A stretch of DNA of 35,931 nucleotides from Candidatus Omnitrophota bacterium (GCA_028718845.1 JAQULA010000001.1:1-35931); one strand, 5' to 3'. Shown: positions 7,088 to 31,199, counted from the first letter of the stretch. Made by a program: numbers and translations. The notes: generated by a model not told the origin, from the sequence alone.

Positions 7088-7120
7088 GCCAGGGAAGGAA
7101 GTCCCTGGCTTTTATTGTTT
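7088..7120 (+). terminator. rho-independent terminator-like hairpin (priA terminator and/or leader attenuator)
   Basis: An 8-bp stem (GCCAGGGA 7088-7095 pairing with TCCCTGGC 7102-7109) with a 6-nt loop, followed by TTTTATTGTTT. Confidence 0.5.
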
Positions 7121-7153
7121 CCGGTAATTGGACATAACTATGTTAGGATAATC

Positions 7154-8821: not shown

Positions 8822-8839
8822 TTAGAAAGGAGTGCGTGT

Positions 8840-10093
8840 ATGAAAATACGGCCGGGATTTTTGTTCCGTTTCATGGTTTTGTCGGTGATCGCGCTGGCGG
8901 TTTTAGTTATGGGGTTTGAGAACGGGTACTCAGCGTTTGGGTATAATTATTTAAAACAGAGGGAATATGATAAGGCAATTCAATCTTTTGTGATGGCCAA
9001 TAACTATTCCGGGCTGGGCCTGACGTATTTGAAGAGAAAGATGTACCAGGATGCGGAAGAAGCGTTTCGATTGGTAAACGATAAAAAGGGCCTGGGCTTG
9101 GTGTATCTGCAAAAGCATGAGCATAACCGGGCATTGGAATATTTTAAAAGTGTCGAAGATTATGCTGGAGTTGGGCTGGTGTTATGTTCTCAGCATAAAT
9201 ATAAAGAAGCGTTGGAGGAAATGAAAAAACAATCCGATTTTACGGCCGCAGCCCACGCGTATATGGGCATGGGGCAATATCGCAAGGCAATACAGCTCTT
9301 CGAAAGTGCCAATGATTATTCCGGCTTGGGCCTGGCATATTTAAGTAAAGGCGACCGCGAAAAAGCACGGGAATGTTTTGAGCGGAACCTGGATTATTCC
9401 GGCTTGGGGCTGGTAGCTTTGCGGAATGGAAATTTTAAACAGGCACGGGAGTATTTTCAGAAAGAAAACGACGTACAAGGTCTTGGCTTGCTGGCATTGA
9501 ATCGGGGGCATTATACTTTGGCAATAAAATATTTTTTGGAGGCAAATGATAAAAGCGGTATCGGCAAGGCTTATTTTAAGATGGGTAACTATGCTCTGGC
9601 GAAACAATACTTTATGGAGGCCAACGATTATGATGCTTTGGGCGACATGTATTTTTCCTTGCGTGGATTCGACAAGGCTTTCGTGTGTTTTGAAAAAGTC
9701 GGGAATAAGGTGAAAGCTCTGCAATGTTTACGGGAAAAGAAGGACCCTGCGGCGGCGAGTGCCTATGCCGAACAGGCGATTCAAGCCGGGGAAATGGTCC
9801 CGGAATTGCGCCTGCAATTGGGGGAAATTTACCGGTCGGAAAAAAAATTCGATCTGGCCGAGACGCAATTTCGCGTGGTTATGCAAATGGAGGAAATGGA
9901 AGAAGACGGTTTGTTGTATCTGGGGCGTTTGCAGTTCGATACGGGTAAATATTCGGAAGCTTTGACCACGTTCCAATCTTTGCTTTCAAAATATCCGGAT
10001 ACCCGTTACGCGGTTGATGTGCAAATTTCTCTGAAGACCATCAAGACGCTTGCGGGCTTAATCGAAAAAAATAAAAACCAATCGGAATTGTAA
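8840..10093 (+). CDS. membrane-anchored/secreted TPR-like repeat protein with ten 26-residue repeats
   Basis: AAAGGAG RBS and an N-terminal hydrophobic anchor. Residues 28-287 form ten back-to-back 26-aa units (consensus NDYSGLGLaYLxxGxyxxAxxyFxxA), followed by ordinary TPR-like helices. It starts 18 nt after the GT2 stop. Confidence 0.7.
   Translation: MKIRPGFLFRFMVLSVIALAVLVMGFENGYSAFGYNYLKQREYDKAIQSFVMANNYSGLGLTYLKRKMYQDAEEAFRLVNDKKGLGLVYLQKHEHNRALEYFKSVEDYAGVGLVLCSQHKYKEALEEMKKQSDFTAAAHAYMGMGQYRKAIQLFESANDYSGLGLAYLSKGDREKARECFERNLDYSGLGLVALRNGNFKQAREYFQKENDVQGLGLLALNRGHYTLAIKYFLEANDKSGIGKAYFKMGNYALAKQYFMEANDYDALGDMYFSLRGFDKAFVCFEKVGNKVKALQCLREKKDPAAASAYAEQAIQAGEMVPELRLQLGEIYRSEKKFDLAETQFRVVMQMEEMEEDGLLYLGRLQFDTGKYSEALTTFQSLLSKYPDTRYAVDVQISLKTIKTLAGLIEKNKNQSEL
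8921..9700 (+). repeat. 10 x 78-bp (26-codon) in-frame coding repeats, diverged at DNA level
   Basis: Hand alignment of the translation shows ten consecutive units of exactly 26 residues with no indels. Confidence 0.8.
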
Positions 10094-10112
10094 CCGGAAG
10101 GGGGGGGTAACC

Positions 10113-13100
10113 ATGAAATTTGTCGGTGGACTAAAGATATTATTTTTGATCGGTACGATTTTTTGTATTGTTTTATTGGTTGGATCAGTTTCGCCATCGG
10201 TTGCTTCTCAATCCGATCCGGATGGTCCGGATGACCATGGGATTTGTCCCTCCGGAGGAGAGCAAGATGATGGTCCGGAAGATCCCGATGACGGGCAGGA
10301 AGATGATGACCATCATGAAGACCCGGTGTCGGTAACCGGAGGGAAAATATTTATCCCGGAAACCGATCTGGAGCTTAACGGCAACGGCAAAAAGACTGGG
10401 GTTGCTTATCTGGTATTTAAACGTTTTTTTTCTTCCCAGTCGGCTTTTTCCGGCGCTTTAGGCCGTGGATGGTCGACAACCGCGGATATTCAGGTGCAGG
10501 AAACTGATGTTGGTGTGACTATCCGCACGGCATTGGGCAGGAAGTTGAATTTTGTTAAAGATTCGGATGGAGCATACAGGAATCCGGAATGCGGGTACAG
10601 CACCTTAACCAAGATTGATAGCGATACTTTTGAATGGACTCTGAGGAGAGGAGCGGAATATGTATTTAAACGTTCCGGGCTGGCGACAGAGCCGGAACTG
10701 TTTCGTGTTCAAACCATTGACGATCGCTATGGAAATCGAATAAAGTTTGAATACCTGGAATTTAACGATCAATCCTTGGGAGGGCTGGTGAGCAAACCGG
10801 TGCGTATTGTCGAACCGGCAACCAACCGTTTTATCCGGATCAATTGGCGGGAGTATTATAACGGGCAAGAAAATGTGTATTTGGTTGAATCGATTGAAGA
10901 TAGCGCAGGAAGGAAAGTCAGTTATGAGTATGATTTGGCTTTTAATGTTTTCAAAGGGTACGATGCCAGTTTGACAAGGGTGACTGATCCCGAAGGCAAT
11001 ATTCAAAGATACGAACATGTTTTTGAAGATACCCCGGACACCACGATCTTGCGCGGTTTTGAAGTTACCGATAAAAAAGGCAATACGACAACATATAATT
11101 TCAACGAACCGTACACTTCGGCCATGGATTACCCGGATTGGAATTGGAACCTGCGGGTGGAGTCGGTGGTTGATCCCTGCGGCGGAACCATGAGTTTTGT
11201 TACAGATGAACTTTTGGGGGTGACCGTATATACGGATAAAGAGGGCAATGCCGCGGTATACGATTATTCGCGGATGCTTTTGGACAGCGCGGTATATGCC
11301 GACGGTAGAAATAAGCGATATGTTTATGACTATTTTCGCAATCTTGTGAAATTTACCGATACTGCTGGGAATGAATGGAATTACGAATATGACGGATTAA
11401 AAAATATTACCAAGCGAGTCGATCCCTTGGGATATTCCGAAGAATGGACATATGAGTCACAATACAGTAAGTGGATAATCAAGAAAGACAAAAACAATAA
11501 TACCTGGCAGCGCGGTATCGACGAAACAGGTTCTATTATTAATGAAACCGATCCGCAAGGTAAAGTAATTCACTATACCTATGATAATTTCGGCAATTTG
11601 CTGACCAAGACCGATGCCATGGGTTATACCATGGTTTATACGTATGATATATTCGGAAATATGGCATCAAAAACCGATGCCGAGGAAAATGCATGGGTTT
11701 ATACCTATGATACGGTGGGCAATTTATTAAGCGAAACCGATCCGCGCGGCAATGTTGTTTCTTATACTTATGATAAACTCGGACGGATGTTGACCAAGAC
11801 TGCTTCAGGCGGAGAAAACGAATCTTTTGTATATGATGCCGAGGGTAATTTAATAACGCAGACCGATGCTCAGGGTAATATTACGCGCTACACATATGAT
11901 GCTATGGACCGCAGGATCGCAGTTCGTTTTGCCGACAATACGGAAATAACCTATGCCTACAATGCCATGGGCAAATTGATCACCGAACATAAACCGAACG
12001 GTACCTGGACCTATGGCTATGATGAACGTAATCGCCGGACCTCGGTTACGGATCCGTTGAACAATACCACTACGTTTACCTATGCCGGGTTGGAGGGCTG
12101 CGGCGGCTGCGGCTCCGGAGATAAGATCGCTGGGATTACGGATGCCCGTGGTAATACGACTACGTTTACCTATGATCCCTTGGGCAGAAAAATTCTGGAA
12201 AAAGACATGTATAACAATGCCGATGAATATGTATATGATGCCAACGGCAATCTGATTGAGGCGATTGACAAAATCGGCAGTCATACGATTTATACTTATG
12301 ACAATCTGAACCGGTTGATCGGCATCACTAATCCGCTGGGGGAAAAGGCAGAGATCGGCTATGATGCCAACGGCAACAAAACCCAGGTAAAAGACGCCAA
12401 AGGAAATGTCAGTCAATATGCTTACGACCGAAATAATCGTTTAGTGCAGATAACTGATGCGTTAAGCGGACAGACGCGGTTCGGCTATGATGCCGCGGGC
12501 AACCGGATAACCTTGACCGACGCCGCAGGGAACCATACCGAGTACGATTATGAAAGTCATAACCGTCTGGCCCGGGAATCCGACGCATTCGGCGCAAGCC
12601 AAATGTTCGAATATGATAATAACGGAAATTTACTTAAAAAAATCAATGCCCGGACAGATGAGATCGCTTATGAATATGACGAAAGGACCCGGATTCATTC
12701 CAAAACCGTGCTTGGTGATGGACAGGTGATCTACACCTATGATGAAGCGGGAAATGTTCTTTCGGCAACCGATCCTATTGGCACGCGGACTTTTGCTTAT
12801 GATAACCTGGACAGGCTGGTAAGCGTGACGTATCCCGGCGGACTTGCGCTGCGTTATGAATATGACGCGGTTGGCAATCGCAGTAAATTGATCTATCCCT
12901 CAGGGACCACGGTAACCAACGCATACGATGCGAATAACCGGCTTTCCGGAACAATAATTGACGGAGGCGGTACGCAAAAGGTTTTTTCTTTTGCTTATGA
13001 TGCAAAAGGCCGCAGGACACAGTTGTCATATCCGAACAATGTAATTACGACCTATGCCTATGACCCGTTGGACCGGGTCCTTTCGATTACCACCGGCAAA

Positions 13101-14537
13101 GCGGAGTTTCCCGGCAGTATCTTGGATATCCGCTACACCTACGATGCGGCAGGCAATCGTATCCAGCGTATTGACAATGCCGGGACACATGCGTATGCTT
13201 ATGACGCTTTGAACCAACTGATCAATGTCGTTTATCCGGACAATACCAGCCAGGCCTATGGTTTCGACGCCGTAGGGAATCGGCTGTCTTTGAATGAAAG
13301 CGGTATTTTTCCGGAGTCGGTTTCCGGTTCGTTCAATGCGCTCAACCAGTTGGAACGGGTAACCAGTTCTACTTATAACGGCGGTACACTCGGTTCGATA
13401 AGCGGAACCTGGGCGGATACCAACATCGACGCGATTACCGTTAACGGAAGTTTTGCAACTATCCGCAATGGTGTGTTCGTGGCGGATAATCTTCAGCTTG
13501 TACCCGGAGCGAACACCTTGAATATATCAGCCGAAGACAAGGCCGGCAATATTACCCAGACAACGCTGGATGTGGTTTTGGACAATACTGCCAAGGCTGT
13601 TTACACCTATGACCCAGACGGCAATCTCAAGACATCATCAGTAAAAGGAGTTACCTGGACCTATACCTGGAACGCGGAGAGCAAGCTGATACGCGCGGCC
13701 TCCAGCAGCGGGAAGGTAATTGATTACGGCTACTACGACGACGGCAACCTTGCGTTCCGGCAGGACAGCAGCGGCAAGGTTGTCTATGTTTATGACGGCA
13801 TCCACTGCATCGCGGAATATGATGAGAGCGGAGCGTTGCTCAAGGAATACGTCTACGGCCCGAACGTGGATGAAGTGCTGTGCGCGCAGACCCCGGCCGG
13901 CGGGGTAGCCTATTATCATCAGGATGCGTTGCAGAGCGTAACAGTGTTGACGGATGGGTTTGCCAACAAGATTACAGACTATGAATACGATGTTTATGGC
14001 GCAGTGACGAAAACAACCAGTGCCACGGACAATCAGATCTTGTTTACCGGCCGGTGGCTGGATAGTGATACTAATCTTTATTACTACAGAGCGAGGTGGT
14101 ACGACGTAAGTAGCGGGAGGTTTGTTAGCTGTGATCCGATTGGAGTAATGGGCGGGGTGAATCTGTATGGGTATTGCGGAAATAATTCAGTAAAGTTTAT
14201 TGATCCGTATGGATTGTTAAAATGGTATGGAAATTGGGGAGGACCTAAATGGAGTGGAGGTAAAGAGGTTTCTCTTGAAAATCTTAGCCCTGAAGAGAGA
14301 AACAAATTAAAGGCACCCATAGATGATAGGGATAGATGCTATATGCTGCATGATTATTGCTATTTTTCCTGTGTAGGATTATGTGATAATAAACAAAGAA
14401 TTTCATGTAAAAAAGGTTGTGATCATAACTTAGGCCTTTGTTTACAACAGGCTAAAGATGGCGGGGATCAAAATATCTCTAGTGAAGAAATTAACTTTTT
14501 TAAATCTGAGAAAAATCCATGGATTTATATGAATTAA
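10113..14537 (+). CDS. Rhs/YD-repeat polymorphic toxin with Sec signal peptide, acidic linker and PLA2-like C-terminal tip
   Basis: The N-terminus has a signal peptide (ILFLIGTIFCIVLLVGSVSPSVASQ) and then a D/E/P-rich linker. Dozens of YD repeats follow (YTYDxxGNL, YxYDxxNRL). The RHS core end is YYYRARWYDVSSGRFVSCDPIG...VKFIDPYGL (DPxGL at 14202-14216). A 106-aa tip occupies 14217-14534. Confidence 0.95.
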   Translation: MKFVGGLKILFLIGTIFCIVLLVGSVSPSVASQSDPDGPDDHGICPSGGEQDDGPEDPDDGQEDDDHHEDPVSVTGGKIFIPETDLELNGNGKKTGVAYLVFKRFFSSQSAFSGALGRGWSTTADIQVQETDVGVTIRTALGRKLNFVKDSDGAYRNPECGYSTLTKIDSDTFEWTLRRGAEYVFKRSGLATEPELFRVQTIDDRYGNRIKFEYLEFNDQSLGGLVSKPVRIVEPATNRFIRINWREYYNGQENVYLVESIEDSAGRKVSYEYDLAFNVFKGYDASLTRVTDPEGNIQRYEHVFEDTPDTTILRGFEVTDKKGNTTTYNFNEPYTSAMDYPDWNWNLRVESVVDPCGGTMSFVTDELLGVTVYTDKEGNAAVYDYSRMLLDSAVYADGRNKRYVYDYFRNLVKFTDTAGNEWNYEYDGLKNITKRVDPLGYSEEWTYESQYSKWIIKKDKNNNTWQRGIDETGSIINETDPQGKVIHYTYDNFGNLLTKTDAMGYTMVYTYDIFGNMASKTDAEENAWVYTYDTVGNLLSETDPRGNVVSYTYDKLGRMLTKTASGGENESFVYDAEGNLITQTDAQGNITRYTYDAMDRRIAVRFADNTEITYAYNAMGKLITEHKPNGTWTYGYDERNRRTSVTDPLNNTTTFTYAGLEGCGGCGSGDKIAGITDARGNTTTFTYDPLGRKILEKDMYNNADEYVYDANGNLIEAIDKIGSHTIYTYDNLNRLIGITNPLGEKAEIGYDANGNKTQVKDAKGNVSQYAYDRNNRLVQITDALSGQTRFGYDAAGNRITLTDAAGNHTEYDYESHNRLARESDAFGASQMFEYDNNGNLLKKINARTDEIAYEYDERTRIHSKTVLGDGQVIYTYDEAGNVLSATDPIGTRTFAYDNLDRLVSVTYPGGLALRYEYDAVGNRSKLIYPSGTTVTNAYDANNRLSGTIIDGGGTQKVFSFAYDAKGRRTQLSYPNNVITTYAYDPLDRVLSITTGKAEFPGSILDIRYTYDAAGNRIQRIDNAGTHAYAYDALNQLINVVYPDNTSQAYGFDAVGNRLSLNESGIFPESVSGSFNALNQLERVTSSTYNGGTLGSISGTWADTNIDAITVNGSFATIRNGVFVADNLQLVPGANTLNISAEDKAGNITQTTLDVVLDNTAKAVYTYDPDGNLKTSSVKGVTWTYTWNAESKLIRAASSSGKVIDYGYYDDGNLAFRQDSSGKVVYVYDGIHCIAEYDESGALLKEYVYGPNVDEVLCAQTPAGGVAYYHQDALQSVTVLTDGFANKITDYEYDVYGAVTKTTSATDNQILFTGRWLDSDTNLYYYRARWYDVSSGRFVSCDPIGVMGGVNLYGYCGNNSVKFIDPYGLLKWYGNWGGPKWSGGKEVSLENLSPEERNKLKAPIDDRDRCYMLHDYCYFSCVGLCDNKQRISCKKGCDHNLGLCLQQAKDGGDQNISSEEINFFKSEKNPWIYMN
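13653..14216 (+). repeat. master copy of the Rhs core-end repeat shared with the downstream orphan cassettes
   Basis: The block TWTYTWNAE...DPYGL recurs, fully or partly, at 15179-15610, 16999-17554, 18676-19269, 19815-20378 and 21258-21557. Confidence 0.9.
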
Positions 14538-14548
14538 TGGGAGGGAAC

Positions 14549-15142
14549 ATGTTTATATTATTTTTATATTTTTCACTGATATCTTTATGGCTTAACATTA
14601 TTTCAACTGTTTCATTTTTAGGGCAAATGGGGTATGGATCATTGGACATATTAACAAAACTTATGTTTTTTATTGGTTTTTTGCCTAGCAAATTGCTTGG
14701 TTTAATGCAAGGTGATTTTGCCAGATTTGCTTTCAGTTTTAAATTATATTTTATTAATATGTTGACATGGGGATTATTGGGATGCTTAATATGGGTGTTT
14801 TTAGTTAAAAGTATGCATGTAAAAGAAACAAAGATTAATTTAACAACGCGAAATTTGATTTGGGGGTTCTTAGCAGGTAATTTGTTGTCAATTTTAATTA
14901 TAATTTTTATTACAATGTTTAGCATTGATATTTTTCATCCGGTATTAGGCTTTATAATAGGGCCGATAGTCTTTTTTAAATTTTTTGCGAAGCAACAAGG
15001 AGCACTAGTTATCATCGAAAATATATATTATATCTTTTTAAGCACATATTTTTTTGAAATCACAGCTAAACATAGAAATAAATTTTTGTCAGTAATTTTT
15101 ATAATGCATTTGATTTTCGGAATTTTCGCGATTTTACTTTAG
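14549..15142 (+). CDS. polytopic membrane protein, candidate immunity protein for the main Rhs tip
   Basis: ATG 14549 is preceded by GGGAGGG and lies directly after the rhs stop (14537). The gene is very AT-rich and the product is almost entirely hydrophobic helices. I recognise no family. Confidence 0.55.
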   Translation: MFILFLYFSLISLWLNIISTVSFLGQMGYGSLDILTKLMFFIGFLPSKLLGLMQGDFARFAFSFKLYFINMLTWGLLGCLIWVFLVKSMHVKETKINLTTRNLIWGFLAGNLLSILIIIFITMFSIDIFHPVLGFIIGPIVFFKFFAKQQGALVIIENIYYIFLSTYFFEITAKHRNKFLSVIFIMHLIFGIFAILL

Positions 15143-15178
15143 TGCAAAATTAGCAGGCATAATCCTAATTTTAGATAA

Positions 15179-15610
15179 TATATTTACGACGGCATCCACT
15201 GCATCGCCGAGTATGACGAAACCGGGGCTTTGCTTAAGGAATACGTCTATGGCCCGAACGTGGATGAAGTGCTGTGCGCGCAGACTCCGGCAGGCGGGGT
15301 AGCGTATTATCATCAGGATGCGTTGCAGAGCGTAACAGCGTTGACGGATGGGTTTGCCAACAAGGTTGTATCTTACGAATATGATGTGTATGGTGCACTA
15401 ACCAAGACAGTTGGCACAATAGATAATCAGATCCTGTTTACCGGACGGTGGCTGGATAGTGATACTAATCTTTATTACTACAGAGCGAGGTGGTACGACG
15501 TAAGTAGCGGGAGGTTTGTTAGCTGTGATCCGATTGGGGTGATGGGCGGGGTGAATTTGTATGCGTATGTGGGGAATAATGGCGTAAACAGAATTGATCC
15601 TTTGGGGCTT
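15179..15610 (+). repeat. Rhs core-end repeat, copy 2 (5'-truncated, starts at YIYDGIHC)
   Basis: It aligns by eye to 13790-14216 of the main gene and ends at DPLGL (15596-15610). An in-frame TAA lies at 15176. Confidence 0.9.
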
Positions 15611-16036
15611 AAAGTTACGTGTAAGAGAAGTACTTGGGATCCTATTCTTCAGATAATAGATCCTTATGATGGCCCGATTGTAGACTCAAAAGTCGAGTGG
15701 CACTATAGGACAATAGGTGTTAAATTTTTGAGTGGGCCTGATTTTAGTAATAATGAAGATGGGTGTTTAGGATGCAAATGTATTCAAGAATATTTTAAAA
15801 TGGTAAAAATTTCAACGTATTTAGATTATTTGATTGAAAAAGCTACTGTAACATGTTTTGATGACGTAAATAACGCAACATGGATATATGATTTAACAAG
15901 AAGAAATGGACGTAGGTTCACGACAAAAAAAGAAGAATTCCCTGTGGTTCCAACTCAGTTTGAAGATCCAGGGATTGTATTAGGCAACGGAGCTTGCAAT
16001 TGTGAAACTGATGATGCGATTGTGTATGGCAAATAA
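15230..16036 (+). CDS. orphan rhs-CT cassette 1 (Rhs core end + 141-aa novel toxin tip)
   Basis: The tracked ORF begins at a TTG, and there is no ATG or RBS at the homology start. The core end is YYYRARWYDVSSGRFVSCDP...DPLGL. The AT-rich tip at 15611-16033 contains 7 Cys. Confidence 0.75.
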   Translation: MLKEYVYGPNVDEVLCAQTPAGGVAYYHQDALQSVTALTDGFANKVVSYEYDVYGALTKTVGTIDNQILFTGRWLDSDTNLYYYRARWYDVSSGRFVSCDPIGVMGGVNLYAYVGNNGVNRIDPLGLKVTCKRSTWDPILQIIDPYDGPIVDSKVEWHYRTIGVKFLSGPDFSNNEDGCLGCKCIQEYFKMVKISTYLDYLIEKATVTCFDDVNNATWIYDLTRRNGRRFTTKKEEFPVVPTQFEDPGIVLGNGACNCETDDAIVYGK

Positions 16037-16049
16037 AGTGGGGGTGGGT

Positions 16050-16973
16050 ATGAAAAAACTGCTATTATGTTTGGGTATTGGAATGCTTACATATATTTTT
16101 TTTGTTTCCGATGTTGTAGCCAATGAACTTTATTTTTCAACAGCCAAAGGATCAGTTACAACAGAAGAACAGGTTCTTTTCGAAGAAATGGCAGATGAAA
16201 ACGGGCAAACGTTGTTTGTTAAAAAAGAGCCTTTGTTTACCTACGAGGAAATTGTGTCGATTGAAATCGGAGAAAAGCTATCTGATGACGATAAATACTT
16301 AATTGCTTTTCAATTGAAGCCAGATAGCATTAATAAAATAGAAAAATTGTTTAATTCGGAAGTAGAGACAAGATTTGCGATTGTGTTAAACAGGAAGCTC
16401 CTGGGTGCCCCCTTTATGCGTAAAGGAATAATTCCATCTGTAATTACCGCTACAATAAAAATGGATGAAATGCGATTAAAGGAACTGAAAGCGGTGAGAG
16501 AGAAAATAATGGAAGTAATCCCAGGGGTACAAAACACAAGGAATAATTCCGAGGGGGCTTCTTCTGTTAGAATGGAAGAGCAGGGTGATAAGCTGATCGA
16601 CAATGGCGATTATAAACAAGCTATTACGTGGTTTATTAAATTACATGAGCAGTTCCCCGATAACCCGACTTATTATGAAAAAATAGGTTTTTGTTATTTT
16701 CTCTTGAAAGATTATAAAAAAGCGATAGATAATCTTTGCCGTGCCAGGCAGTTAACTGCGAAAGAAAACCAGTGGAAGATTGTGATGATGATTGCCAAGT
16801 CATATCAGTTGCAAGGGGATCGTAGACGTGCAGTCCTTGAAATGGAAAAGGAGATTAAATTTTTTGATAATTACTTAAAGAATAAGTTAGCGACAGATGA
16901 TTCAAAACTGTTTTTTCAGATTAGGAAAAAAATATTTGAAGATGAACTAAAAGTGCTGAAGGCCGAAAAGTAA
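16050..16973 (+). CDS. secreted TPR-containing protein, candidate immunity 1
   Basis: ATG 16050 (MKKLLLCLGIGMLTYIFFVSDVVA, a signal peptide) starts 14 nt after the orphan 1 stop. C-terminal TPR-like helices include GDYKQAITWFIKLHEQFPDNPTYY and KDYKKAIDNL. Confidence 0.55.
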   Translation: MKKLLLCLGIGMLTYIFFVSDVVANELYFSTAKGSVTTEEQVLFEEMADENGQTLFVKKEPLFTYEEIVSIEIGEKLSDDDKYLIAFQLKPDSINKIEKLFNSEVETRFAIVLNRKLLGAPFMRKGIIPSVITATIKMDEMRLKELKAVREKIMEVIPGVQNTRNNSEGASSVRMEEQGDKLIDNGDYKQAITWFIKLHEQFPDNPTYYEKIGFCYFLLKDYKKAIDNLCRARQLTAKENQWKIVMMIAKSYQLQGDRRRAVLEMEKEIKFFDNYLKNKLATDDSKLFFQIRKKIFEDELKVLKAEK

Positions 16974-16998
16974 ATACGCGATTTTGTAGCCGGCACCC

Positions 16999-17554
16999 CT
17001 ATACCTGGAACGCGGAGAACAAGCTGATACGCGCGGCCTCCAGCAGCGGGAAGGTGATTGATTACGGCTACTACGACGACGGCAATCTGGCGTTCCGGCA
17101 GGACAGCAATGGCAAGGTTGTCTATATTTACGACGGCATCCACTGCATCGCCGAGTATGACGAAACCGGGGCTTTGCTTAAGGAATACGTCTATGGCCCG
17201 AACGTGGATGAAGTATTGTGCGCGCAGACTCCGGCCGGCGGGGTTTTCTATTACCACCAGGATGCTTTGCAGAGCGTGACGGCATTGACCGATGGATTCG
17301 CCAACAAGATTACAGACTATGAATACGATGTTTACGGCGCAGTGACGAAAACAACCAGTGCCACGGACAATCAGATCTTGTTTACCGGCCGGTGGCTGGA
17401 TGTGGAGACAGGGTTGTATTATTACCGGGCGCGGTGGTATGATTCGGAAACCGGGAGGTTTATCAGCTGTGATCCGATTGGGGTGATGGGCGGGGTGAAT
17501 TTGTATGGGTATTGCGGAAATAATGGTGTCAATAATACTGACCCATTGGGATTA
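16999..17554 (+). repeat. Rhs core-end repeat, copy 3
   Basis: YTWNAENKLIRAASSSGKVIDYGYYDDGN ... DPLGL (17540-17554). Confidence 0.9.
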
Positions 17555-17884
17555 GAAGGATGGTATCATGATGTTTTTGATGACCCAGTTCGGTGTAATG
17601 GGAGTGATTCCTGTGAAGTGTTAAAAGCAAAACGATGGCATTTTATGCTAGTTTTAGCTGCGCGTCTAACTGAAAAGGCCTGGAGAATAAGTCAAGGGTT
17701 GTCTGTAGATGAAGGGCATGATCGGGCGATAGAGTCAACTTTTCAAGGAATTAAGCGTTGTTCTGATTTAATAAAAATTATTTGTAGAAAAACTAAATGC
17801 GATGATAAAAAAGAATATTTTGATGATTCATCCGTGTTGCCCAAAATTACAACAGTTACACCGCCGCCAATGTCAGGTTTTTAA
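17054..17884 (+). CDS. orphan rhs-CT cassette 2 (Rhs core end + 109-aa novel tip)
   Basis: The tracked ORF starts at a GTG, but homology to the main rhs begins earlier in the same frame (about 16999). The tip at 17555-17881 (EGWYHDVFDDPVRCNGSDSCEVLKAKRWHF...) is helical-looking and unrecognised. Confidence 0.75.
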   Translation: MIDYGYYDDGNLAFRQDSNGKVVYIYDGIHCIAEYDETGALLKEYVYGPNVDEVLCAQTPAGGVFYYHQDALQSVTALTDGFANKITDYEYDVYGAVTKTTSATDNQILFTGRWLDVETGLYYYRARWYDSETGRFISCDPIGVMGGVNLYGYCGNNGVNNTDPLGLEGWYHDVFDDPVRCNGSDSCEVLKAKRWHFMLVLAARLTEKAWRISQGLSVDEGHDRAIESTFQGIKRCSDLIKIICRKTKCDDKKEYFDDSSVLPKITTVTPPPMSGF

Positions 17885-17942
17885 AACTGGTTTTGGAAGC
17901 GGAACATTAATAAAAAAATAAATTGTATTATGGGGGATAAAA

Positions 17943-18608
17943 ATGGAAAAACTTACTTTTGAAGAATGGATTTCCTGGATTTTTAATCATGAAGTTGTTA
18001 AACCAGCATGGTTTTATGGTATTAATGCTCCTTTTTATGAGTTGAATCATGATCTCTCAGTGCAATATGTTACACGATTATTCCAAGAAGCAGGAGAAAA
18101 ACTATCTGTATTTTCTGATGAGCAAGTTAACCAAGGATTGTATTTTTTAATTGATCCTGGGGCATCGGGGATTATCTGTCAAGCTGTTGTCAATGATGTC
18201 GAATTAAATAAAGTGAGGGAATTAATTTTTACAATTAACAATATATATTCAAATATTTTCTTCAAAAGATGTACTCCCTATTTAAGTCATTTGAACGAGT
18301 CAGGAGTTGGCGCACTTAATCCCGTTTGTTATATGTGGTGGGATGTTTCAGCATTTGGTTCTTTAGGCAGGAATACAAATAGCGAAGAATCTATCTTGGA
18401 GGCTTGTTTGGAAACGATGCGAAAAATACTTGAACTGCCGCATGATGCATGTCGAGAAAGTGCTTTGCATGGATTGGGACATTTGGTTCGAATGAATAGA
18501 AAAAAAACATTGTGCCAACATTTGATAGCTGAATTCTTAAGAAATAATTACTTGCGGCAAGAATTAAGGGATTATGCTAAAGCAGCCCAAAATGGGACTG
18601 CGCAATAA
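17943..18608 (+). CDS. cytoplasmic-looking protein, candidate immunity 2
   Basis: GGGGGA RBS. No signal peptide or TM segment. It directly follows orphan 2, is AT-rich, and belongs to no family I recognise. Confidence 0.5.
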   Translation: MEKLTFEEWISWIFNHEVVKPAWFYGINAPFYELNHDLSVQYVTRLFQEAGEKLSVFSDEQVNQGLYFLIDPGASGIICQAVVNDVELNKVRELIFTINNIYSNIFFKRCTPYLSHLNESGVGALNPVCYMWWDVSAFGSLGRNTNSEESILEACLETMRKILELPHDACRESALHGLGHLVRMNRKKTLCQHLIAEFLRNNYLRQELRDYAKAAQNGTAQ

Positions 18609-18645
18609 ATTTTTAAAGGAATAGCTTAACCAAAGTGTCAAATAG

Positions 18646-19443
18646 TTGGCATGGAAGATGGGCCTTGCCGGCACCACCTGGACCTATACCTGGAACGCGG
18701 AGAACAAGCTGATACGCGCGGCCTCCAGCAGCGGGAAGGTGATTGATTACGGCTACTACGACGACGGCAACCTTGCGTTCCGGCAGGACAGCAGCGGCAA
18801 GGTTGTCTATGTTTATGACGGCATCCACTGCATTGCCGAGTATGACGAGACCGGTGGCTTGCTTAAGGAATATGTTTACCCCGTGAGCCCTGCGGGCAAC
18901 GGGGCAAGTGGACCGAATGTGGACGAGGTGCTGTGCACACTGGAATCGAGCGGCGGCGTATCCTATTATCATCAGGATGCGTTGCAGAGCGTGGTGGTGT
19001 TGACGGATGGGTTTGCCAACGAGGTGGTATCATACGAATATGATATATACGGCGCGCTAACTAAGACAGTTGGCACAAAGGATAATCAGATCTTATTTAC
19101 CGGCCGGTGGCTGGATAGCGATACTAATCTTTATTACTACAGAGCGAGGTGGTACGACGTAAGTAGCGGCAGGTTTATCAGCCGGGATCCGATTGGGATA
19201 ATGGGCGGGGTGAATTTGTATGGGTATGTTGGGAATGAGCCGGTACGGTTCGTTGATCCTTTAGGACTGAGTCGGGATGTATGGGGATGTCAGTTGTTGT
19301 ATGAACGAGATAACGTGTGCAGTAATCTATTCAAATTTTGCGTTTATGCTTGCCAAAAAGCCGAAGGAGATACTGGACTGCGTATTAAAAAAGTAAAGTG
19401 GCTAAAATGTATTCCGTGTTTAAAAAATTGGTTAATATTATAA
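18646..19443 (+). CDS. orphan rhs-CT cassette 3 (Rhs core end + 57-aa Cys-rich tip)
   Basis: The tip at 19270-19440 is SRDVWGCQLLYERDNVCSNLFKFCVYACQKAEGDTGLRIKKVKWLKCIPCLKNWLIL (6 Cys). An in-frame ATG at 18658 sits just before the repeat. Confidence 0.7.
   Translation: MAWKMGLAGTTWTYTWNAENKLIRAASSSGKVIDYGYYDDGNLAFRQDSSGKVVYVYDGIHCIAEYDETGGLLKEYVYPVSPAGNGASGPNVDEVLCTLESSGGVSYYHQDALQSVVVLTDGFANEVVSYEYDIYGALTKTVGTKDNQILFTGRWLDSDTNLYYYRARWYDVSSGRFISRDPIGIMGGVNLYGYVGNEPVRFVDPLGLSRDVWGCQLLYERDNVCSNLFKFCVYACQKAEGDTGLRIKKVKWLKCIPCLKNWLIL
18676..19269 (+). repeat. Rhs core-end repeat, copy 4 (with a short insertion YPVSPAGNGAS)
   Basis: TWTYTWNAENKLIRAASSSGKVIDYGYYDDGN ... DPLGL (19255-19269). It shares the upstream junction GCCGGCACC with copy 3. 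Confidence 0.9.
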
Positions 19444-19452
19444 GGAGAAAAA

Positions 19453-19806
19453 ATGGAAGAAAATAAACTTAATGCACCAATAGATATGTTAATTAAAAAA
19501 ATTTTGTTTTGGGCTTTGATGTCAATGTCCACAGTGTTTATTTTAAATGCGATTATCCCCCAGCAAACACTTAATGAATTTACGAAAAATCCGAATTTTT
19601 TATACATATTCTTTTTTATGGGTCTTTGGTGGAGTTCTCTTATTCTTATTTTTGTTGGAAGCATATTGGGAACTATTAGGGGTATAGTAATTTTCAAGAA
19701 ATATAGATTTAGTTTGTTGTTAAAAAAAGAGGCTATCTATTTGTGGTGTTCCATTTCCGTACTCTTGTTAATCATCTGTATTTTGCTGATGTATCTTTTG
19801 TTATAG
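19453..19806 (+). CDS. small 3-TM membrane protein, candidate immunity 3
   Basis: AAGGAG RBS. It starts 9 nt after the orphan 3 stop and has three hydrophobic helices. Confidence 0.5.
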   Translation: MEENKLNAPIDMLIKKILFWALMSMSTVFILNAIIPQQTLNEFTKNPNFLYIFFFMGLWWSSLILIFVGSILGTIRGIVIFKKYRFSLLLKKEAIYLWCSISVLLLIICILLMYLLL

Positions 19807-20633
19807 AAAACAGTTGGTGGACCTATACCTGGAACGCGGAGAACAAACTGATCCGCGCGGCCTCCAGCAGCGGAAAAGTAACTAATTACGGCTATTACGA
19901 TGACGGGAATTTGGCGTACCGGCAGGATATCAACGGCAAGGTTGTCTATATTTACGACGGCATCCACTGCATTGCCGAGTATGACGAAAGCAATGCCTTG
20001 CTCAAGGAATACGTCTACGGCCCGAACGTGGATGAAGTGCTGTGCGCGCAGACTCCGGCAGGCGGGGTAGCGTATTATCATCAGGATGCGTTGCAGAGCG
20101 TAACAGCGTTGACGGATGGGTTTGCCAACAAGGTTGTATCTTACGAATATGATGTGTATGGTGCACTAACCAAGACAGTTGGCACAATAGATAATCAGAT
20201 CCTGTTTACCGGACGGTGGCTGGATAGTGATACTAATCTCTACTACTATAGGGCAAGATGGTATGATTCGGAAGCAGGGAGGTTCGTTTCCCGGGATCCG
20301 ATTGGGGTAATGGGCGGGGTGAATTTGTATGGGTATTGCTTAAATAATTCGATTAAGTTTAATGATCCTAAAGGGCTATGTGGAATTCCAATCCTGCCGC
20401 CTAAGATGCCCGATGTAGTTAATCCTAACTGGGGAGAAGGAATAAATAATAGAAATATGCACGAAAGTGGATATATCATGTGTTATCTTGCAAGTTCTGA
20501 GATTGTATTTGATGAGGATGCTTGCATGAAATTTAAATGCATATATGAATGTGAGGATGGTTCAATTGTACAGATAGGGCACGTATCTGAGTGTGAAGCA
20601 ATTCATTTTCTTCCCTACACGCCAATAGATTAA
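19743..20633 (+). CDS. orphan rhs-CT cassette 4 (Rhs core end + 84-aa Cys-rich tip)
   Basis: The tracked GTG start overlaps the immunity 3 gene, and real homology starts near 19815. The tip at 20379-20630 is CGIPILPPKMPDVVNPNWGEG...CIYECEDGSIVQIGHVSECEAIHF (7 Cys). Confidence 0.7.
   Translation: MVFHFRTLVNHLYFADVSFVIENSWWTYTWNAENKLIRAASSSGKVTNYGYYDDGNLAYRQDINGKVVYIYDGIHCIAEYDESNALLKEYVYGPNVDEVLCAQTPAGGVAYYHQDALQSVTALTDGFANKVVSYEYDVYGALTKTVGTIDNQILFTGRWLDSDTNLYYYRARWYDSEAGRFVSRDPIGVMGGVNLYGYCLNNSIKFNDPKGLCGIPILPPKMPDVVNPNWGEGINNRNMHESGYIMCYLASSEIVFDEDACMKFKCIYECEDGSIVQIGHVSECEAIHFLPYTPID
19815..20378 (+). repeat. Rhs core-end repeat, copy 5
   Basis: WTYTWNAENKLIRAASSSGKVTNYGYYDDGN ... DPKGL (20364-20378). 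Confidence 0.9.
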
Positions 20634-20646
20634 GGAGATAAGAGCT

Positions 20647-21201
20647 ATGAAGAACATTATTTGTTTAAAAAAAGTTGACGGACAGTGGATGATTCTTATG
20701 AATTATGTTTTATTTGAAGTGTCAATTGTTTTTCTTAAAGGAATGCCTAGATTGTCTTGCTTAATAAATTATGCGGATTGGAAGAGGCTATTGATTAAGA
20801 TGCTGATACAAAAGAAGAATCATTCGCAAAGAAAAAAAGAAGGTAAAATTTTACAAAAAATCGGCAGGGATATTTGTTATATATCGGATAAGCCGTTGGA
20901 GATATTGTTGCCGTCAGATGAGCTGGAATCTAAAAATAATTTTAAGCTTACCAAAGAAGATAAAAAAACTGGCATGTCTAAATATATCGCTGTGGAAATA
21001 AGCAATGTTACGATTCATTTTCACAGAAACATGTTTGTAAAATTTCGGGATGCCTTATTGGATGCAAATCAGGTTCTGGAAAAACGGCTGGAAATATTGA
21101 CCGGTAATAAAGAATGTAAAAGGGCTATGATTAAAAAAATAGAAGAAGGTAAAGTGAAACAGGTGGTAGTAAGAGGAAATATTATTAAAAACAATTATTA
21201 G
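20647..21201 (+). CDS. Lys-rich soluble protein, candidate immunity 4
   Basis: AAGGAG RBS 7 nt upstream. It directly follows orphan 4, is AT-rich, and belongs to no recognised family. Confidence 0.45.
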   Translation: MKNIICLKKVDGQWMILMNYVLFEVSIVFLKGMPRLSCLINYADWKRLLIKMLIQKKNHSQRKKEGKILQKIGRDICYISDKPLEILLPSDELESKNNFKLTKEDKKTGMSKYIAVEISNVTIHFHRNMFVKFRDALLDANQVLEKRLEILTGNKECKRAMIKKIEEGKVKQVVVRGNIIKNNY

Positions 21202-21257
21202 AATTAAGAATAGGATTTAGAGGGGGCCTTGTTCAAAGTTATTGAATACCATATGCT

Positions 21258-21599
21258 TATGACCAAGATGGCAATCTCAAGGCATCATCAGTAAAAGGAG
21301 TCACTTGGACTTACACTTGGAACGCTGAGAATAAACTTACGCGTGCGGCCTCCAGCAGCGGGAAGGTGATTGATTACGGTTATTACGATGACGGCAACCT
21401 CGCGTTCCGGCAGGACAGCAGCGGCAAGGTTGTCTATGTTTATGACGGCATCCACTGCATCGCGGAATATGATGAGAGCGGAGCGTTGCTCAAGGAATAC
21501 GTCTACGGCCCGAACGTGGATGAAGTGCTGTGCGCGCAGACCCCGGCCGGCGGGGTATCACGCCCGGTGGCACGAGCCGCAGAGGGCAGGTTTGTTTAG
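21258..21599 (+). pseudogene. decayed rhs remnant with no toxin tip, marking the end of the array
   Basis: YDQDGNLKASSVKGVTWTYTWNAENKL...CAQTPAGGV matches main rhs 13611-13907, including a 156-bp block I read as identical (21402-21557 vs 13752-13907). Homology then breaks. A frameshifted trace, YHARWHEPQRAGLF, resembles YYRARWYDSEAGRF. Confidence 0.8.
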
Positions 21600-21639
21600 G
21601 ATAAGCGGAAATATTATAATAAGTAAAGGGGAGGTGTGT

Positions 21640-22344
21640 ATGCGGAAAAATTGGATGATTGCAGCTGGAGTGGTAATCGGTGGTATGATGTGTGCCTCTT
21701 TGGCTTACAGCGCGACTTTGAGCGTGACGGTAAAGGCGGATAAGCAGTATTATTCCGAAGGAGAAACCGCGGTTTTTAATGTGGAACTGAAAGACGGGAA
21801 CAGTTGGGCTAAAGAAGCGGGGCTCACTTTGCGGGCGAGTTTTCCCGATCCCGCTACACCAGTAAGTTTGGTTTTTGTATCGATCGGTCATTATAAATTT
21901 GAACCTAAACTGGGGAAAACACCAAAAGACCAGGCATTAAATGTCGAAGTATATCAAGGGAAGAAAACAACGCGGCCGGCAGCTACTGCCGCTGCAAATA
22001 TCACGGTGTTCCCGGTTGTGGATAGTACTTTTACCGTGAAAGAAGGTAGCCATACTAATCACACGGATATTACTTTACAGATATCGTCGGATGCCGATCA
22101 TGAGCTGATGGTGAGTGAAGCTGCCGGTTTCGATGATGCGGTTTGGCAGCCGTATGCGGCAAGCCTGGCGTATGTTTTGAGCAATGGGGATGGCGTAAAG
22201 ACAGTCTATATGAAATTCCGCCACCTTTTTCTCAATACAGAAGAAACGGAACAGCGCACAATTAATTTAGATACGGTTTCTCCGGCGGTGACGATAATGT
22301 CTCCATCCGAGGGGGCAGCGATTACGGGAAAGACTCAGCAATAG
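21640..22344 (+). CDS. secreted protein of unknown function (Ig-like beta-rich)
   Basis: Start moved to ATG 21640 (GGGGAGG RBS; MRKNWMIAAGVVIGGMMCASLAYSA is a signal peptide). The tracked 21370 start is a read-through from another frame of the rhs remnant. The C-terminal DTVSPAVTIMSPSEGAAITG looks like the start of an Ig-like domain that is cut short. Confidence 0.55.
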   Translation: MRKNWMIAAGVVIGGMMCASLAYSATLSVTVKADKQYYSEGETAVFNVELKDGNSWAKEAGLTLRASFPDPATPVSLVFVSIGHYKFEPKLGKTPKDQALNVEVYQGKKTTRPAATAAANITVFPVVDSTFTVKEGSHTNHTDITLQISSDADHELMVSEAAGFDDAVWQPYAASLAYVLSNGDGVKTVYMKFRHLFLNTEETEQRTINLDTVSPAVTIMSPSEGAAITGKTQQ

Positions 22345-22347
22345 AAG

Positions 22348-22740: not shown

Positions 22741-22811
22741 AATGTAATTATAGCGCAGATGGTTTTTCTATCAAGTAAAAAGCCATATTTGGAGAAGGAA
22801 CGGTTATCTTA

Positions 22812-23981: not shown

Positions 23982-24030
23982 CAGTTAATAACCGTTGATA
24001 ACCATTATTAACCGAGGGTAACCGTATCGA

Positions 24031-31181: not shown

Positions 31182-31199
31182 GCCGGGTACAAGGCAAAG

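Follow-up and report, generated by a model that had tools for sequence, protein, structure and literature searches.

A Candidatus Omnitrophota Rhs polymorphic-toxin locus with a PLA2-like tip and an array of orphan cassettes

Rhs orphan arrays are a well-studied case of bacteria that store and swap weapons. To our knowledge, they have been studied nearly exclusively in Proteobacteria with T6SS delivery, and a full-text literature search for Omnitrophota together with Rhs returned incidental mentions only, as far as the papers inspected show. Rhs main genes with orphan rhs-CT/rhsI modules were described in Salmonella Typhimurium LT2, E. coli and Dickeya dadantii (Koskiniemi et al. 2014, PMC3967940), and in Salmonella, an orphan toxin becomes active once its module has recombined with the main rhs gene (PMC3967940). 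PLA2-fold toxin domains were described on signal-peptide-exported RHS proteins (Zhang et al. 2012, PMC3482391).

The window analysed here (the whole stretch of DNA, 35,931 nucleotides) is an entire contig of a short-read Candidatus Omnitrophota MAG. It very probably contains a chromosomal Rhs polymorphic-toxin locus, in which an expressed, exported and PLA2-tipped gene is followed by silent, recombining orphan cassettes.

Anatomy of the locus

Table 1. Features of the locus, with positions counted in the window unless given as aa.
Feature	Coordinates	Strand	Details
GT2	7115..8821	+	membrane glycosyltransferase family 2 (cellulose-synthase/MdoH-like); Pfam Glyco_tranf_2_3, Glycos_transf_2; start codon uncertain
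TPR-repeat protein	8840..10093	+	Pfam TPR_1, TPR_2, E 1e-34
Main Rhs gene	10113..14537	+	1474 aa; ATG start; NCBI protein MDD5745629.1
Main Rhs domains, in order	signal peptide aa 1-32; acidic linker; DUF6531 aa 70-147; YD/RHS shell; core aa 1292-1368; tip	+	Ig-like insert in the shell, aa 1095-1157
Tip of the main gene (putatively expressed), secreted-PLA2-like	14217..14537 (tip residues 14217-14534)	+	106 aa; 7 Cys
I0, four-TM membrane protein	14549..15142	+	197 aa; ATG 14549; TM and SD scan
Orphan O1	15179..16036	+	core end 15179-15610 (= main 13785-14216); 141-aa tip 15611-16036
O1 BLASTN match	15179-15600 = main 13785-14206	+	86.7%
I1, exported or anchored	16050..16973	+	307 aa; N-terminal hydrophobic segment, SecDF-P1-head-like region, TPR
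Orphan O2	16998..17884	+	core end 16998-17554; 109-aa tip 17555-17884
O2 BLASTN match	16998-17524 = main 13660-14186	+	88.7%
I2, cytoplasmic all-alpha ARM/HEAT-like	17943..18608	+	221 aa
Orphan O3	18676..19443	+	core end 18676-19269; 57-aa tip 19270-19443
O3 BLASTN match	18676-19259 = main 13653-14206	+	81.0%; 30-nt in-frame insertion
I3, three-TM	19453..19806	+	117 aa; AAGGAG SD
Orphan O4	19818..20633	+	core end 19818-20378; 84-aa tip 20379-20633
O4 BLASTN match	19818-20368 = main 13656-14206	+	84.8%
I4, lysine-rich	20647..21201	+	184 aa; AAGGAG SD
R5, decayed remnant	21258..21599	+	21258-21557 = main 13608-13907, 93.0%
'post', exported	21640..22344	+	234 aa; homolog upstream of GT2 in relatives

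As originally predicted, the locus begins with a full-length Rhs gene: the ORF opens with ATG and contains RHS repeats, a DUF6531 domain and a TIGR03696 core (Table 1). The Pfam model RHS_repeat (PF05593) matched 19 stretches (E 3.7e-120), the NCBIfam model TIGR01643 matched with E 3.4e-88, and the shell carries an Ig-like insert (aa 1095-1157). The DPYGL motif lies at aa 1364-1368 (14202-14216). This would be the one expressed and exported gene of the locus: behind the signal peptide, DUF6531 would form the plug and the YD repeats the shell, and the aspartyl-protease core closes with DPYGL. A scan for promoters and terminators returned sites no commoner than chance.

The signal peptide is of the Sec type and is kept in the relatives L002 and L003. 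Pfam and NCBIfam scans of the Rhs gene and of the larger ORFs in the 36-kb window detected no PAAR, VgrG, EagR chaperone or T6SS genes, and scans of the locus with the same collections detected no TpsB transporter, haemagglutinin/FHA repeats or VENN motif. With a lipid A acyltransferase and a secretin, the producer is equipped for outer-membrane biogenesis, so that in this diderm envelope a second step across the outer membrane would be needed for Rhs, presumably by an export route beyond Sec.

The 3' end of the main gene was compared with the downstream DNA by BLASTN, which recovered the five further core-end copies that had been claimed (O1-O4, 422-584 nt; R5, 300 nt; 81-93% identity, E about 6e-128 to 0); a repeat finder recovered the same repeat families. 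The TIGR03696 profile scored 84 bits on the main gene and 87-95 bits on O1-O4 (E 1e-25 to 4e-27 for the latter; cut-off 32.5), and DP[YLK]GL is present in each of them. R5 proved to be the decayed terminal remnant that had been proposed: it is 100% identical to the main gene over 13752-13907, ends before the core domain, lacks a tip and continues with 42 nt of unrelated or deleted sequence ending in ...EGRFV and a stop. These 42 nt may be the leftover of an internal deletion.

O1-O4 carry different tips, each followed by an unrelated ORF; no pair among the tips or among the five downstream ORFs gave a match below E 0.01. The O1-O4 tips are AT-rich and Cys-rich (GC of the tips 0.33-0.38, versus about 0.5 in the core), and the chance probabilities of the tip reading frames staying open were 3.5e-6 to 6e-3. 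No homolog or fold was assigned to the O1-O4 tips in Pfam, PDB and sequence searches: the O1, O2 and O4 tips gave nothing significant against Pfam and PDB sequences, and a sequence search with the O1 tip alone retrieved a single near-identical JGI fragment. A word-index search with the five tips concatenated returned only O4 itself and missed the PLA2-like family, so it is a weak negative for O2-O4. Likeness of the orphan tips to tips of L001-L004 (tblastn) was spurious once the tips were compared alone, and no full-length Rhs among the relatives compared was seen to carry one of the O1-O4 tips as its expressed tip.

Signal peptides were not detected on O1-O4. The original prediction also held that the orphans have no convincing ATG or RBS. 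This is correct for O1, which starts directly behind an in-frame TAA without ATG, and for O2, which has no ATG and whose earliest possible start (GTG 17054) lies within conserved coding sequence. The other two have possible starts: O3 at ATG 18658 (18 nt ahead of the homology start, without clear SD), and O4, whose frame is open from 19713, at GTG 19743, which AAGAGG precedes by 10 nt; NCBI annotates O4 as a 296-aa CDS. The orphans could thus be small toxins or regulators expressed independently from these internal starts, as the O4 site and annotation and the O3 ATG would allow. We consider this decidedly unlikely, since O1 and O2 lack an ATG, the products would be without the signal peptide and shell needed for export and encapsulation, and O2-O4 all begin within main 13653-13660, like truncation or recombination boundaries and not gene starts. 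The preferred reading is that four silent cassettes lie behind the expressed gene, each of which would consist of the last 0.42-0.58 kb of the core, its own AT-rich tip and a downstream gene with an independent start; O1-O4 are, accordingly to this arrangement, probably silent. The observation behind the original prediction was confirmed, and its main-plus-orphan model is supported because a full shell, truncated core-end fragments with unrelated tips, ORFs with their own ATG and a terminal stub are all present.

Upstream, GT2 (first) and TPR (second) form a syntenic string with Rhs. GT2 orthologues (57-59% identical) lie directly upstream of TPR-Rhs in L002 and L003, where TPR orthologues (65-67% identical) keep the same position; on NCBIfam CelA/MdoH-like models, GT2 scored below the cut-offs. 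In the relatives, the homolog of 'post' lies upstream of GT2, so that the position of 'post' behind the array here is a permutation. Orphans recur in the relatives L001, L003 and L004. A mobile-element origin was considered and rejected (no tRNA, Rfam match, IS-like inverted repeats or integron features). For an integron-like array, neither an integrase nor attC-type boundary hairpins were found in the window, and the palindrome TTCTGACC-N5-GGTCAGAA is absent from the window; the only orphan boundaries that carry it are those of the relatives L003 and L004.

The PLA2-like tip and the downstream genes

The tip of the main gene contains the motifs YGNWGGPKWSGG, PIDDRDRCYMLHDYCY and CDHNLGLCL. 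An exhaustive HMMER search retrieved 310 homologs, located at protein C-termini, and the long homologs that were checked are Rhs proteins (6/6). In a 30-sequence alignment of the family, H45 and D46 are invariant and D39, C41, Y42 and C48 are at least 90% conserved; H45/D46 align with the sPLA2 active site in the PDB matches. The family profile matched the PLA2 1poc in the PDB (E 0.0017). Pfam PF00068 was matched by 21 of the 30 family members (best E 1.2e-4) and PF09056 by none of them, while the window's own tip reached 12.1 bits on PF00068, below the cut-off of 32.1. The AF2 model of the tip (pLDDT 92.7) was compared with the PDB using Foldseek: the top five matches were rice sPLA2 with probability 0.92-0.99, but with E 0.1-0.4 (best 0.12) and TM 0.46-0.50. 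These sub-threshold matches of sequence and predicted structure suggest that the main tip is an sPLA2-like domain. It is presumably toxic; as a small disulfide-rich enzyme, it would attack the membrane phospholipids of the target cell.

The I0 ORF also opens at 14519, and ATG 14549 has GGGAGGG 8-9 nt upstream. In L120 (E 3e-25) and L119 (E 5e-5), the gene that immediately follows the PLA2-like tip is homologous to I0, and the tip and I0 travel as a unit in unrelated metagenome contigs. This conserved pairing points to I0 as the candidate cognate immunity protein of the PLA2-like tip; encoded 12 nt downstream, it would protect the producer.

Each orphan tip is likewise followed by an ORF with its own ATG, mostly with an SD-like motif. 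The ORFs behind the orphan tips had been put forward as immunity candidates: position agrees with such a role for all five downstream ORFs, I0 included, and support beyond position was obtained for I0 only. I1-I4 are thus candidates by position and may act as immunity proteins. I1 is also present in contigs L080 and L131, and I3 occurs with the same neighbours in L128 and L129. The I2 family is large and widespread outside toxin loci; in 5/5 inspected contexts, its homologs lie in sugar-metabolism or unrelated surroundings and not beside toxins, and O2-tip homologs are absent there, so that I2 as a dedicated immunity family is unproven. The downstream proteins are mostly membrane or exported proteins, which fits envelope-acting toxins.

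Exchange between the repeats and replication in other assemblies

The repeats had been called near-identical. Overall they are 81-93% identical only, but internal tracts of 80-270 nt reach 97-100%. Mosaicism among the copies was detected with MaxChi (permutation p<0.001), as follows: the main gene and O3 are 98.7% identical left of 13811 and 79.6% to the right, the main gene and R5 85% and then 100%, and O1 and O4 97.3% and then 68%. The core-end copies are under purifying selection (dN/dS 0.12-0.35, dS 0.27-1.4) and are therefore diverged selected coding sequence; they are neither decaying DNA nor duplicates that arose recently in situ.

On the left, O2, O3 and O4 have boundaries no more than 8 nt apart (13653-13660), and O2 and O3 share an extra upstream motif (GCCGGCACC), a hint of copying between some of the cassettes. 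Both features would agree with an origin in which the 3' end was tandemly duplicated in situ and the copies then diverged, without any tip being displaced or acquired horizontally. Such an origin is very unlikely for the array as a whole: the tips and downstream genes have no detectable similarity, the GC of tips and immunity genes is 0.27-0.38 versus about 0.5 in the core, core-end dS reaches 0.7-1.4, and the PLA2-like tip/I0 pair is a unit in unrelated metagenome contigs.

Under the main-plus-orphan model, homologous recombination or gene conversion in the shared core-end repeat would exchange sequence between copies. Such exchange could set another tip behind the shell, or delete cassettes, and R5 may be a truncated relic of these exchange or deletion events. 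Elsewhere, in contigs of other samples, an O2-type or O1-type core end precedes the PLA2-like tip and I0. L132 carries them on an O2-type core end, with discriminating sites 67 nt apart and a k-mer overlap of 77 nt. L131 joins I1 via a single hybrid repeat to 'post', without about 4.3 kb of the array, and is possibly a shorter array; for L131 and L133, a path of the assembly graph that runs through 55-156 nt of exactly shared sequence could also be the source. The recombination that had been proposed is supported by the mosaic tracts and by the tip/I0 pair on other core-end types, and actual tip switching may take place in this organism.

Selection could instead act mainly on the downstream genes, kept as an immunity reservoir against the toxins of neighbouring strains, while the toxin fragments would be passive remains, reactivated seldom if at all. 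In favour of this, an ATG and SD of their own distinguish the downstream genes from the orphans, no terminator-like site lies between the cassettes, so that read-through could express these genes, and orphan immunity genes without cognate effectors are documented in Serratia (PMC10539506). Against this, all four tips stay open over 57-141 codons of AT-rich DNA, the low dN/dS of the core ends comes with a retained catalytic DPxGL region, and exchange does involve the repeats on the toxin side, as seen from L132 and the mosaic tracts. We regard the reservoir as a real but rather doubtful possibility; it is compatible with the main explanation of an expressed gene and silent, recombining cassettes.

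Seven junctions of the array recur at 99.6-100% identity in independent data (JGI 2020627003, 3300057060, 3300028916 and 3300028923; Logan SRR22315506; GCA_029216095.1). The junctions main/I0, I0/O1, O1/I1, O3/I3, I3/O4 and R5/post were reproduced in L080, L128, L129, L130 and L132-L134, and the seventh, at the left of O2 (I1/O2), came from L131; O2 tip/I2, I2/O3, O4/I4 and I4/R5 are outside that set. L080 covers 14958-16962 with 0 mismatches and L128 covers 19204-20599 with 1 mismatch; the O3 junctions were confirmed by L128 and L129, and the R5-to-post junction by L130 and L131. A metagenome scan with the core end returned no further near-identical loci.

This replication weakens the concern, raised with the original prediction, that the repeats are an assembly artefact. 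The array or its order could in principle come from multi-strain reads mis-joined at the shared repeat, as the MAG was built from short reads, copies share up to 156 nt exactly (main versus R5, 13752-13907) and related short contigs end or form loops within the repeats. We judge this extremely unlikely: the copies differ by 7-19% and each has unique tip and immunity sequence, the seven junctions recur across other samples and assemblers, a path swap at the 156-nt node would give a cycle and not a linear genome, and relatives have the same architecture.

Comparison with known systems

The locus is an ordinary Rhs orphan array, of a known concept in a new phylum, and extends this architecture to an uncultured, possibly host-dependent phylum. 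It offers three testable leads: the PLA2-like tip with its four-TM partner, the four short Cys-rich tips, and the cross-sample variants that resemble main/orphan exchange. A wider reading, which we consider unlikely, is an Rhs delivery module that works without a T6SS and is confined to Omnitrophota and their close relatives, in which a Sec-exported shell would work with GT2, TPR and 'post', with disulfide-rich envelope-acting payloads and membrane or periplasmic immunity guards. If it were true, the payloads would be an sPLA2-like lipase and four further tips, interchangeable; these possibly host-dependent nanobacteria might target host or prey cells and not siblings alone; and PLA2-type Rhs tips would gain their first assigned immunity family, that of the 4-TM protein I0.

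Like the enterobacterial orphans, the array consists of a full rhs gene followed by 5'-truncated core-end fragments up to DPxGL, each with a distinct tip and a linked immunity gene (here a candidate). Export signals are absent from the fragments and initiation signals from O1 and O2 (O3 and O4 have possible starts), the tips are AT-rich compared with the GC-richer core, and the route to expression would be recombination in the shared core. Unlike those systems, the host is Candidatus Omnitrophota and not a proteobacterium, the main protein has a Sec signal peptide while the 36-kb window contains no PAAR, VgrG or T6SS gene, the Cys-rich tips measure only 57-141 aa, the downstream genes encode mostly membrane or exported proteins, and GT2 and TPR are syntenic upstream. 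The array is also longer than in LT2 (four orphans and a stub).

Bacillus subtilis WapA and the 'T2SS'-class RHS toxins (Zhang et al. 2012, PMC3482391) share with this locus an N-terminal signal peptide in place of a T6SS adaptor, a YD shell, a core and a polymorphic tip with immunity. WapA is wall-anchored in a monoderm, whereas this producer has outer-membrane biogenesis genes. Zhang's Tox-PLA2 is of the Streptomyces 1kp4 type (CxxHxxxYxN), whereas the tip here matches the eukaryote-type sPLA2 models PF00068 and PF05826; no immunity family was given for Tox-PLA2 (PMC3482391), whereas a 4-TM partner is conserved here.

With the sPLA2 superfamily (groups I/II/III/X/XI; rice 2wg7-2wg9, bee venom 1poc), the tip shares the His-Asp dyad in D-x-C-[CY]-x-x-H-D-x-C-Y and a predicted small, all-alpha, Cys-rich fold; its Gly-rich loop YGNWGGPxWxGG resembles the sPLA2 Ca2+ loop YG[KC]YCGxGxxG, and its C-terminal CDxxLxxCL helix resembles the Asp99 helix. 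It differs in its fusion to an Rhs core, in about 18 residues inserted between the loop and the active-site helix and in a Tyr that replaces one Cys of the CC pair, and it scores below the Pfam gathering cut-offs with a TM of only about 0.5.

Compared with CDI (CdiA-CT/CdiI) orphan arrays, this locus has no CdiB/TpsB, haemagglutinin repeats or VENN motif, and the demarcation is DPxGL and the carrier a YD shell; what the two have in common is a tandem series of displaced tip/immunity modules behind a large exported toxin gene, which recombination would reactivate.

The Rhs gene and its downstream array

BLASTN of the 3' end of the full-length Rhs gene (main) against the downstream DNA recovered five copies (E 6e-128 to 0), the orphan core-end and tip cassettes O1-O4 and the decayed terminal stub R5, and a repeat search gave the same repeat families. 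The array and its coordinates had thus been described correctly in the original prediction, with the exception that "near-identical" overstates copies sharing 81.0-93.0% identity with main. In the TIGR03696 profile search, the core was present in main and in each of O1-O4 (87-95 bits), all four of which retain DPxGL. The homology of R5 stops at main coordinate 13907, short of the core domain, and is followed by 42 nt (ending EGRFV-stop) that may be the residue of an internal deletion.

After DPxGL, the tips measure 106 (main, 14217-14534), 141 (O1), 109 (O2), 57 (O3) and 84 aa (O4). Their frames stay open across AT-rich DNA (chance probability 3.5e-6 to 6e-3), and Cys content is 4.6-10.5% in all five (8.6-13% in the tips of relatives). 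When the five tips and the five ORFs that directly follow them (I0-I4, immunity candidates) were compared with one another, no relatedness was found. The Rhs main-plus-orphan reading is supported.

Features of the window and matching contigs from other samples
Feature	Position	Evidence or remark
Membrane GT2	7115-8821	precedes TPR and Rhs, also in L002 and L003
TPR protein	8840-10093	directly before Rhs, also in L002 and L003
Main Rhs ORF, 1474 aa	10113-14537 (+)	ORF scan
DUF6531 in main Rhs	aa 70-147	Pfam
Glucodextran_B-like Ig insert, C-terminal third of Rhs shell	13395-13583 (aa 1095-1157)	Pfam, E 1.7e-8
TIGR03696 RHS repeat-associated core in main Rhs	aa 1292-1368	NCBIfam
DPYGL of main Rhs	aa 1364-1368	
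I0 start	14549	upstream motif GGGAGGG
O1	15179-15600	BLASTN, 86.7% identity to main
I1 start	16050	G-rich stretch only upstream
O2	16998-17524	BLASTN, 88.7% identity to main
I2	17943-18608	upstream motif GGGGGA at start 17943; cytoplasmic, ARM/HEAT-like all-alpha fold (model pLDDT 93.5)
O3	18676-19259	BLASTN, 81.0% identity to main, 30-nt in-frame insertion
I3 start	19453	upstream motif AAGGAG
O4	19818-20368	BLASTN, 84.8% identity to main
I4 start	20647	upstream motif AAGGAG
R5	21258-21557	BLASTN, 93.0% identity to main
AAA_22 ATPase	30549-31181	
Secretin with STN domain	32182-33969	
Coiled-coil protein, >650 aa	33962-35929	runs off contig end
Contig L134	14114-15208	identical
Contig L080	14958-16962	0 mismatches, 7 indels
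Contig L129	19110-19872	2 mismatches
Contig L128	19204-20599	1 mismatch
Contig L130	21564-26215	identical

The main Rhs protein (NCBI MDD5745629.1) contains 19 RHS-repeat stretches (Pfam, E 3.7e-120), and the window-encoded proteins are identical to the entries of the "Candidatus Omnitrophica bacterium" MAG (locus tags PHO30_000xx). Its N-terminus combines a basic n-region, a hydrophobic core and an A-x-A-like site (SVA followed by SQ), and these signal-peptide features are also kept in the Rhs loci of two relatives, L002 and L003. No PAAR, VgrG or other T6SS gene was found within the window by Pfam and NCBIfam scans, so the locus does not qualify as a T6SS-type Rhs effector; among RHS toxins, it is similar to the signal-peptide class. 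In the relative L001, the orphan (4663-5625) extends back far enough to take in the Ig-like insert region.

The orphans had been predicted to lack a convincing ATG or RBS. This holds for O1, which lacks an ATG and starts immediately 3' of an in-frame TAA, and for O2, which likewise lacks an ATG, but not for O3 (ATG at 18658, without a Shine-Dalgarno motif) or O4 (GTG at 19743 with AAGAGG 10 nt upstream, annotated by NCBI as a 296-aa CDS). No signal peptide or shell was found in any of O1-O4. All five downstream genes start with ATG, preceded in four (I0, I2, I3, I4) by a clear SD-like or G-rich motif. As the array genes all lie on one strand with intergenic gaps of -94 to +58 nt, and no convincing terminator was found between them, transcription of the downstream genes by read-through is plausible.

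The PLA2-like tip and the candidate immunity proteins

An exhaustive HMMER search with the main tip (1.84 billion representatives, E<=1e-3) returned 310 homologs. Among the 151 best, 126 lay <=40 aa from the protein C-terminus, with a DPxGL-like motif just upstream in 80, and all six long homologs examined were Rhs proteins. In the family alignment, G5, G9, H45 and D46 are invariant and W7, G8, P10, W12, G15, P34, D36, D39, C41, Y42, C48, C68, D69, C75 and L76 near-invariant. The best PDB match of the family profile was bee-venom PLA2 (1poc, E 0.0017); dozens of secreted PLA2 structures came next, and every alignment ran through the D-x-C-C-x-x-H-D-x-C-Y active site. PF00068 was matched by 21 of 30 family members, PF05826 by 9/30 and the Streptomyces-type PF09056 by none of the 30. 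An AlphaFold model of the main tip, built with the family alignment, reached pLDDT 92.7, and its top five PDB matches were rice secreted PLA2 (probability 0.92-0.99, TM 0.46-0.50, E 0.1-0.4). Although each line is sub-threshold alone, the separate lines agree, and it was concluded that the main tip is predicted to work like secreted PLA2 yet to form a separate family. An RHS-borne toxin domain with the PLA2 fold has already been catalogued; it is of the 1kp4 type and has no immunity family (Zhang et al., 2012, PMC3482391).

Translated from its ATG, I0 has 197 aa and four predicted TM segments. Homologs of 193-195 aa were found directly 3' of PLA2-like tips in the unrelated contigs L120 (E 3e-25) and L119 (E 5e-5), and this conserved pairing supports I0 as the candidate immunity protein for the PLA2-like tip.

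Among the other downstream proteins, I1 carries a hydrophobic segment at its N-terminus, a SecDF-P1-head-like region and TPRs, I3 three TM segments, and I4 a weak N-terminal hydrophobic segment. The pairing of Cys-rich tips with membrane or exported partners suggests that the site of toxin action may be an oxidising compartment or the cell envelope. I2 belongs to an uncharacterised family of ~220-aa proteins (>338 clusters, without a Pfam model). In five inspected contexts its homologs lie amid sugar-metabolism or unrelated genes, not beside toxins and with no O2-tip homolog nearby; I2 is an immunity candidate by position alone. In other genomes (loci L121 and L123-L127), family members lie within sugar-catabolism operons or amid strings of small unannotated ORFs.

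Exchange among the copies and variant arrangements

Nei-Gojobori pairwise estimates over the 144 codons shared by the core-end copies gave dN/dS of 0.12-0.35 and dS of 0.27-1.4, which mark them as old, diverged coding sequences under purifying selection and rule out fresh duplicates or decaying DNA. Identity varies strongly along the repeats and the closest partner changes by segment (MaxChi permutation p<0.001), as follows: main and O3 share 98.7% left of 13811 and 79.6% right of it; main and R5, 85.4% up to 13752 and 100% from there to 13907; O1 and O4, 97.3% up to 14078 and 68% beyond; O1 and O2, 97.5% up to 13907 and 74% beyond. Such segmental identity is the hallmark of gene conversion or recombination, whether between the copies themselves or between their ancestors.

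Short contigs from other samples were located by exact-protein look-up (see table). Seven junctions recur in them (main/I0, I0/O1, O1/I1, I1/O2, O3/I3, I3/O4 and R5/post, the last leading into "post", the exported-protein gene after the array), which is evidence against the chimeric assembly that the original prediction had named as a possible refutation; for the O2 tip/I2, I2/O3, O4/I4 and I4/R5 junctions, no replicate was present among the contigs found.

Three contigs differ in arrangement. In L132, the PLA2-like tip and I0 are joined to a core end of O2 type at 28/28 discriminating sites (13788-13997) and of main type from 14064 onwards. Its identical 77-nt prefix and suffix imply k=77, and the discriminating sites at the switch are 67 nt apart; because of this spacing and k, the join is not producible from a window-like genome, and its most probable origin is a genuine exchange between main and orphan. 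In L133, the PLA2-like tip is joined to an O1/O4-type core end; this join may be a graph artefact, because, at 77 nt, the shared exact stretch is longer than the apparent k of 55. L131 contains the O1 tip, I1 and the O2 left end and passes from I1 through one hybrid repeat (left part O2/O3-like, right part main/R5-like) to "post", lacking the O2 tip through I4 (~4.3 kb), with one mismatch to the window in its unique flanks. It fits array deletion by repeat-repeat recombination, and is suggestive only, because three shared nodes (88, 92 and 156 nt) could formally be linked into such a path at k=77. In the related MAGs L001, L003 and L004, one or two orphan core ends follow main Rhs.

Genomic setting and known systems

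The genomes closest in the core end are Omnitrophota MAGs (55-63% aa identity), plus one MAG carrying a Planctomycetia label. From GT2 to a reverse-strand TPR gene (6915-24690, ~7-24 kb), GC is 0.34-0.46 versus ~0.52 in the flanks; this stretch sits between priA (4887-6914) and fmt (24691-25635), and it yielded no tRNA, integrase gene or terminal repeats. The flanks are ordinary diderm housekeeping (lipid A acyltransferase, PCMT, PriA, Fmt, GalT-like enzymes, GAPDH, secretin), including tandem paralogous GalT/HIT-like genes (339 and 334 aa, 25842-27865) downstream of fmt. The genes at 30549-35929, 10 kb from the Rhs array, possibly form a T2SS/T4P-like outer-membrane module.

The string post-GT2-TPR-Rhs is kept in the two closest relatives with upstream sequence (L002 524-8292, L003 3008-10729) and absent from more distant Rhs loci. 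GT2 and TPR share 57-67% identity with their counterparts there; "post" (21640-22344, 38% identity) follows the array in the window and precedes GT2 in the relatives, a permuted order. On a 1.1-kb metagenome contig (L100, 103-824), a GT2 N-terminal fragment (51% identity) leads directly into an Rhs core-end fragment (54%), a differently rearranged remnant of the GT2-Rhs module.

A perfect palindrome, TTCTGACC-N5-GGTCAGAA, lies at or just upstream of the orphan 5' boundary in two different related MAGs (L003 11707-11727; L004 2658-2678 and 4067-4087), occurs also in L082 and L083, and is absent from the window; in the relatives, a role as terminator, REP-like element or recombination site is possible. 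Just past the array, adjoining a DUF1573 gene (22348-22740, -), a 389-aa protein (22812-23981, +) has an N-terminal CxxC (CEGC) and about seven TM segments, with weak thioredoxin-like Pfam matches (E ~0.2), and is conserved in L130. Its position is notable given the five Cys-rich toxin tips.

The array is of interest for its phylum and Sec-type export, for a PLA2-like tip paired with a conserved 4-TM protein, for four tips that have no relatives, and for the evidence of exchange seen across samples. The locus matches the main-plus-orphan arrangement of Salmonella Rhs, for which recombinational activation of an orphan has been shown (PMC3967940).
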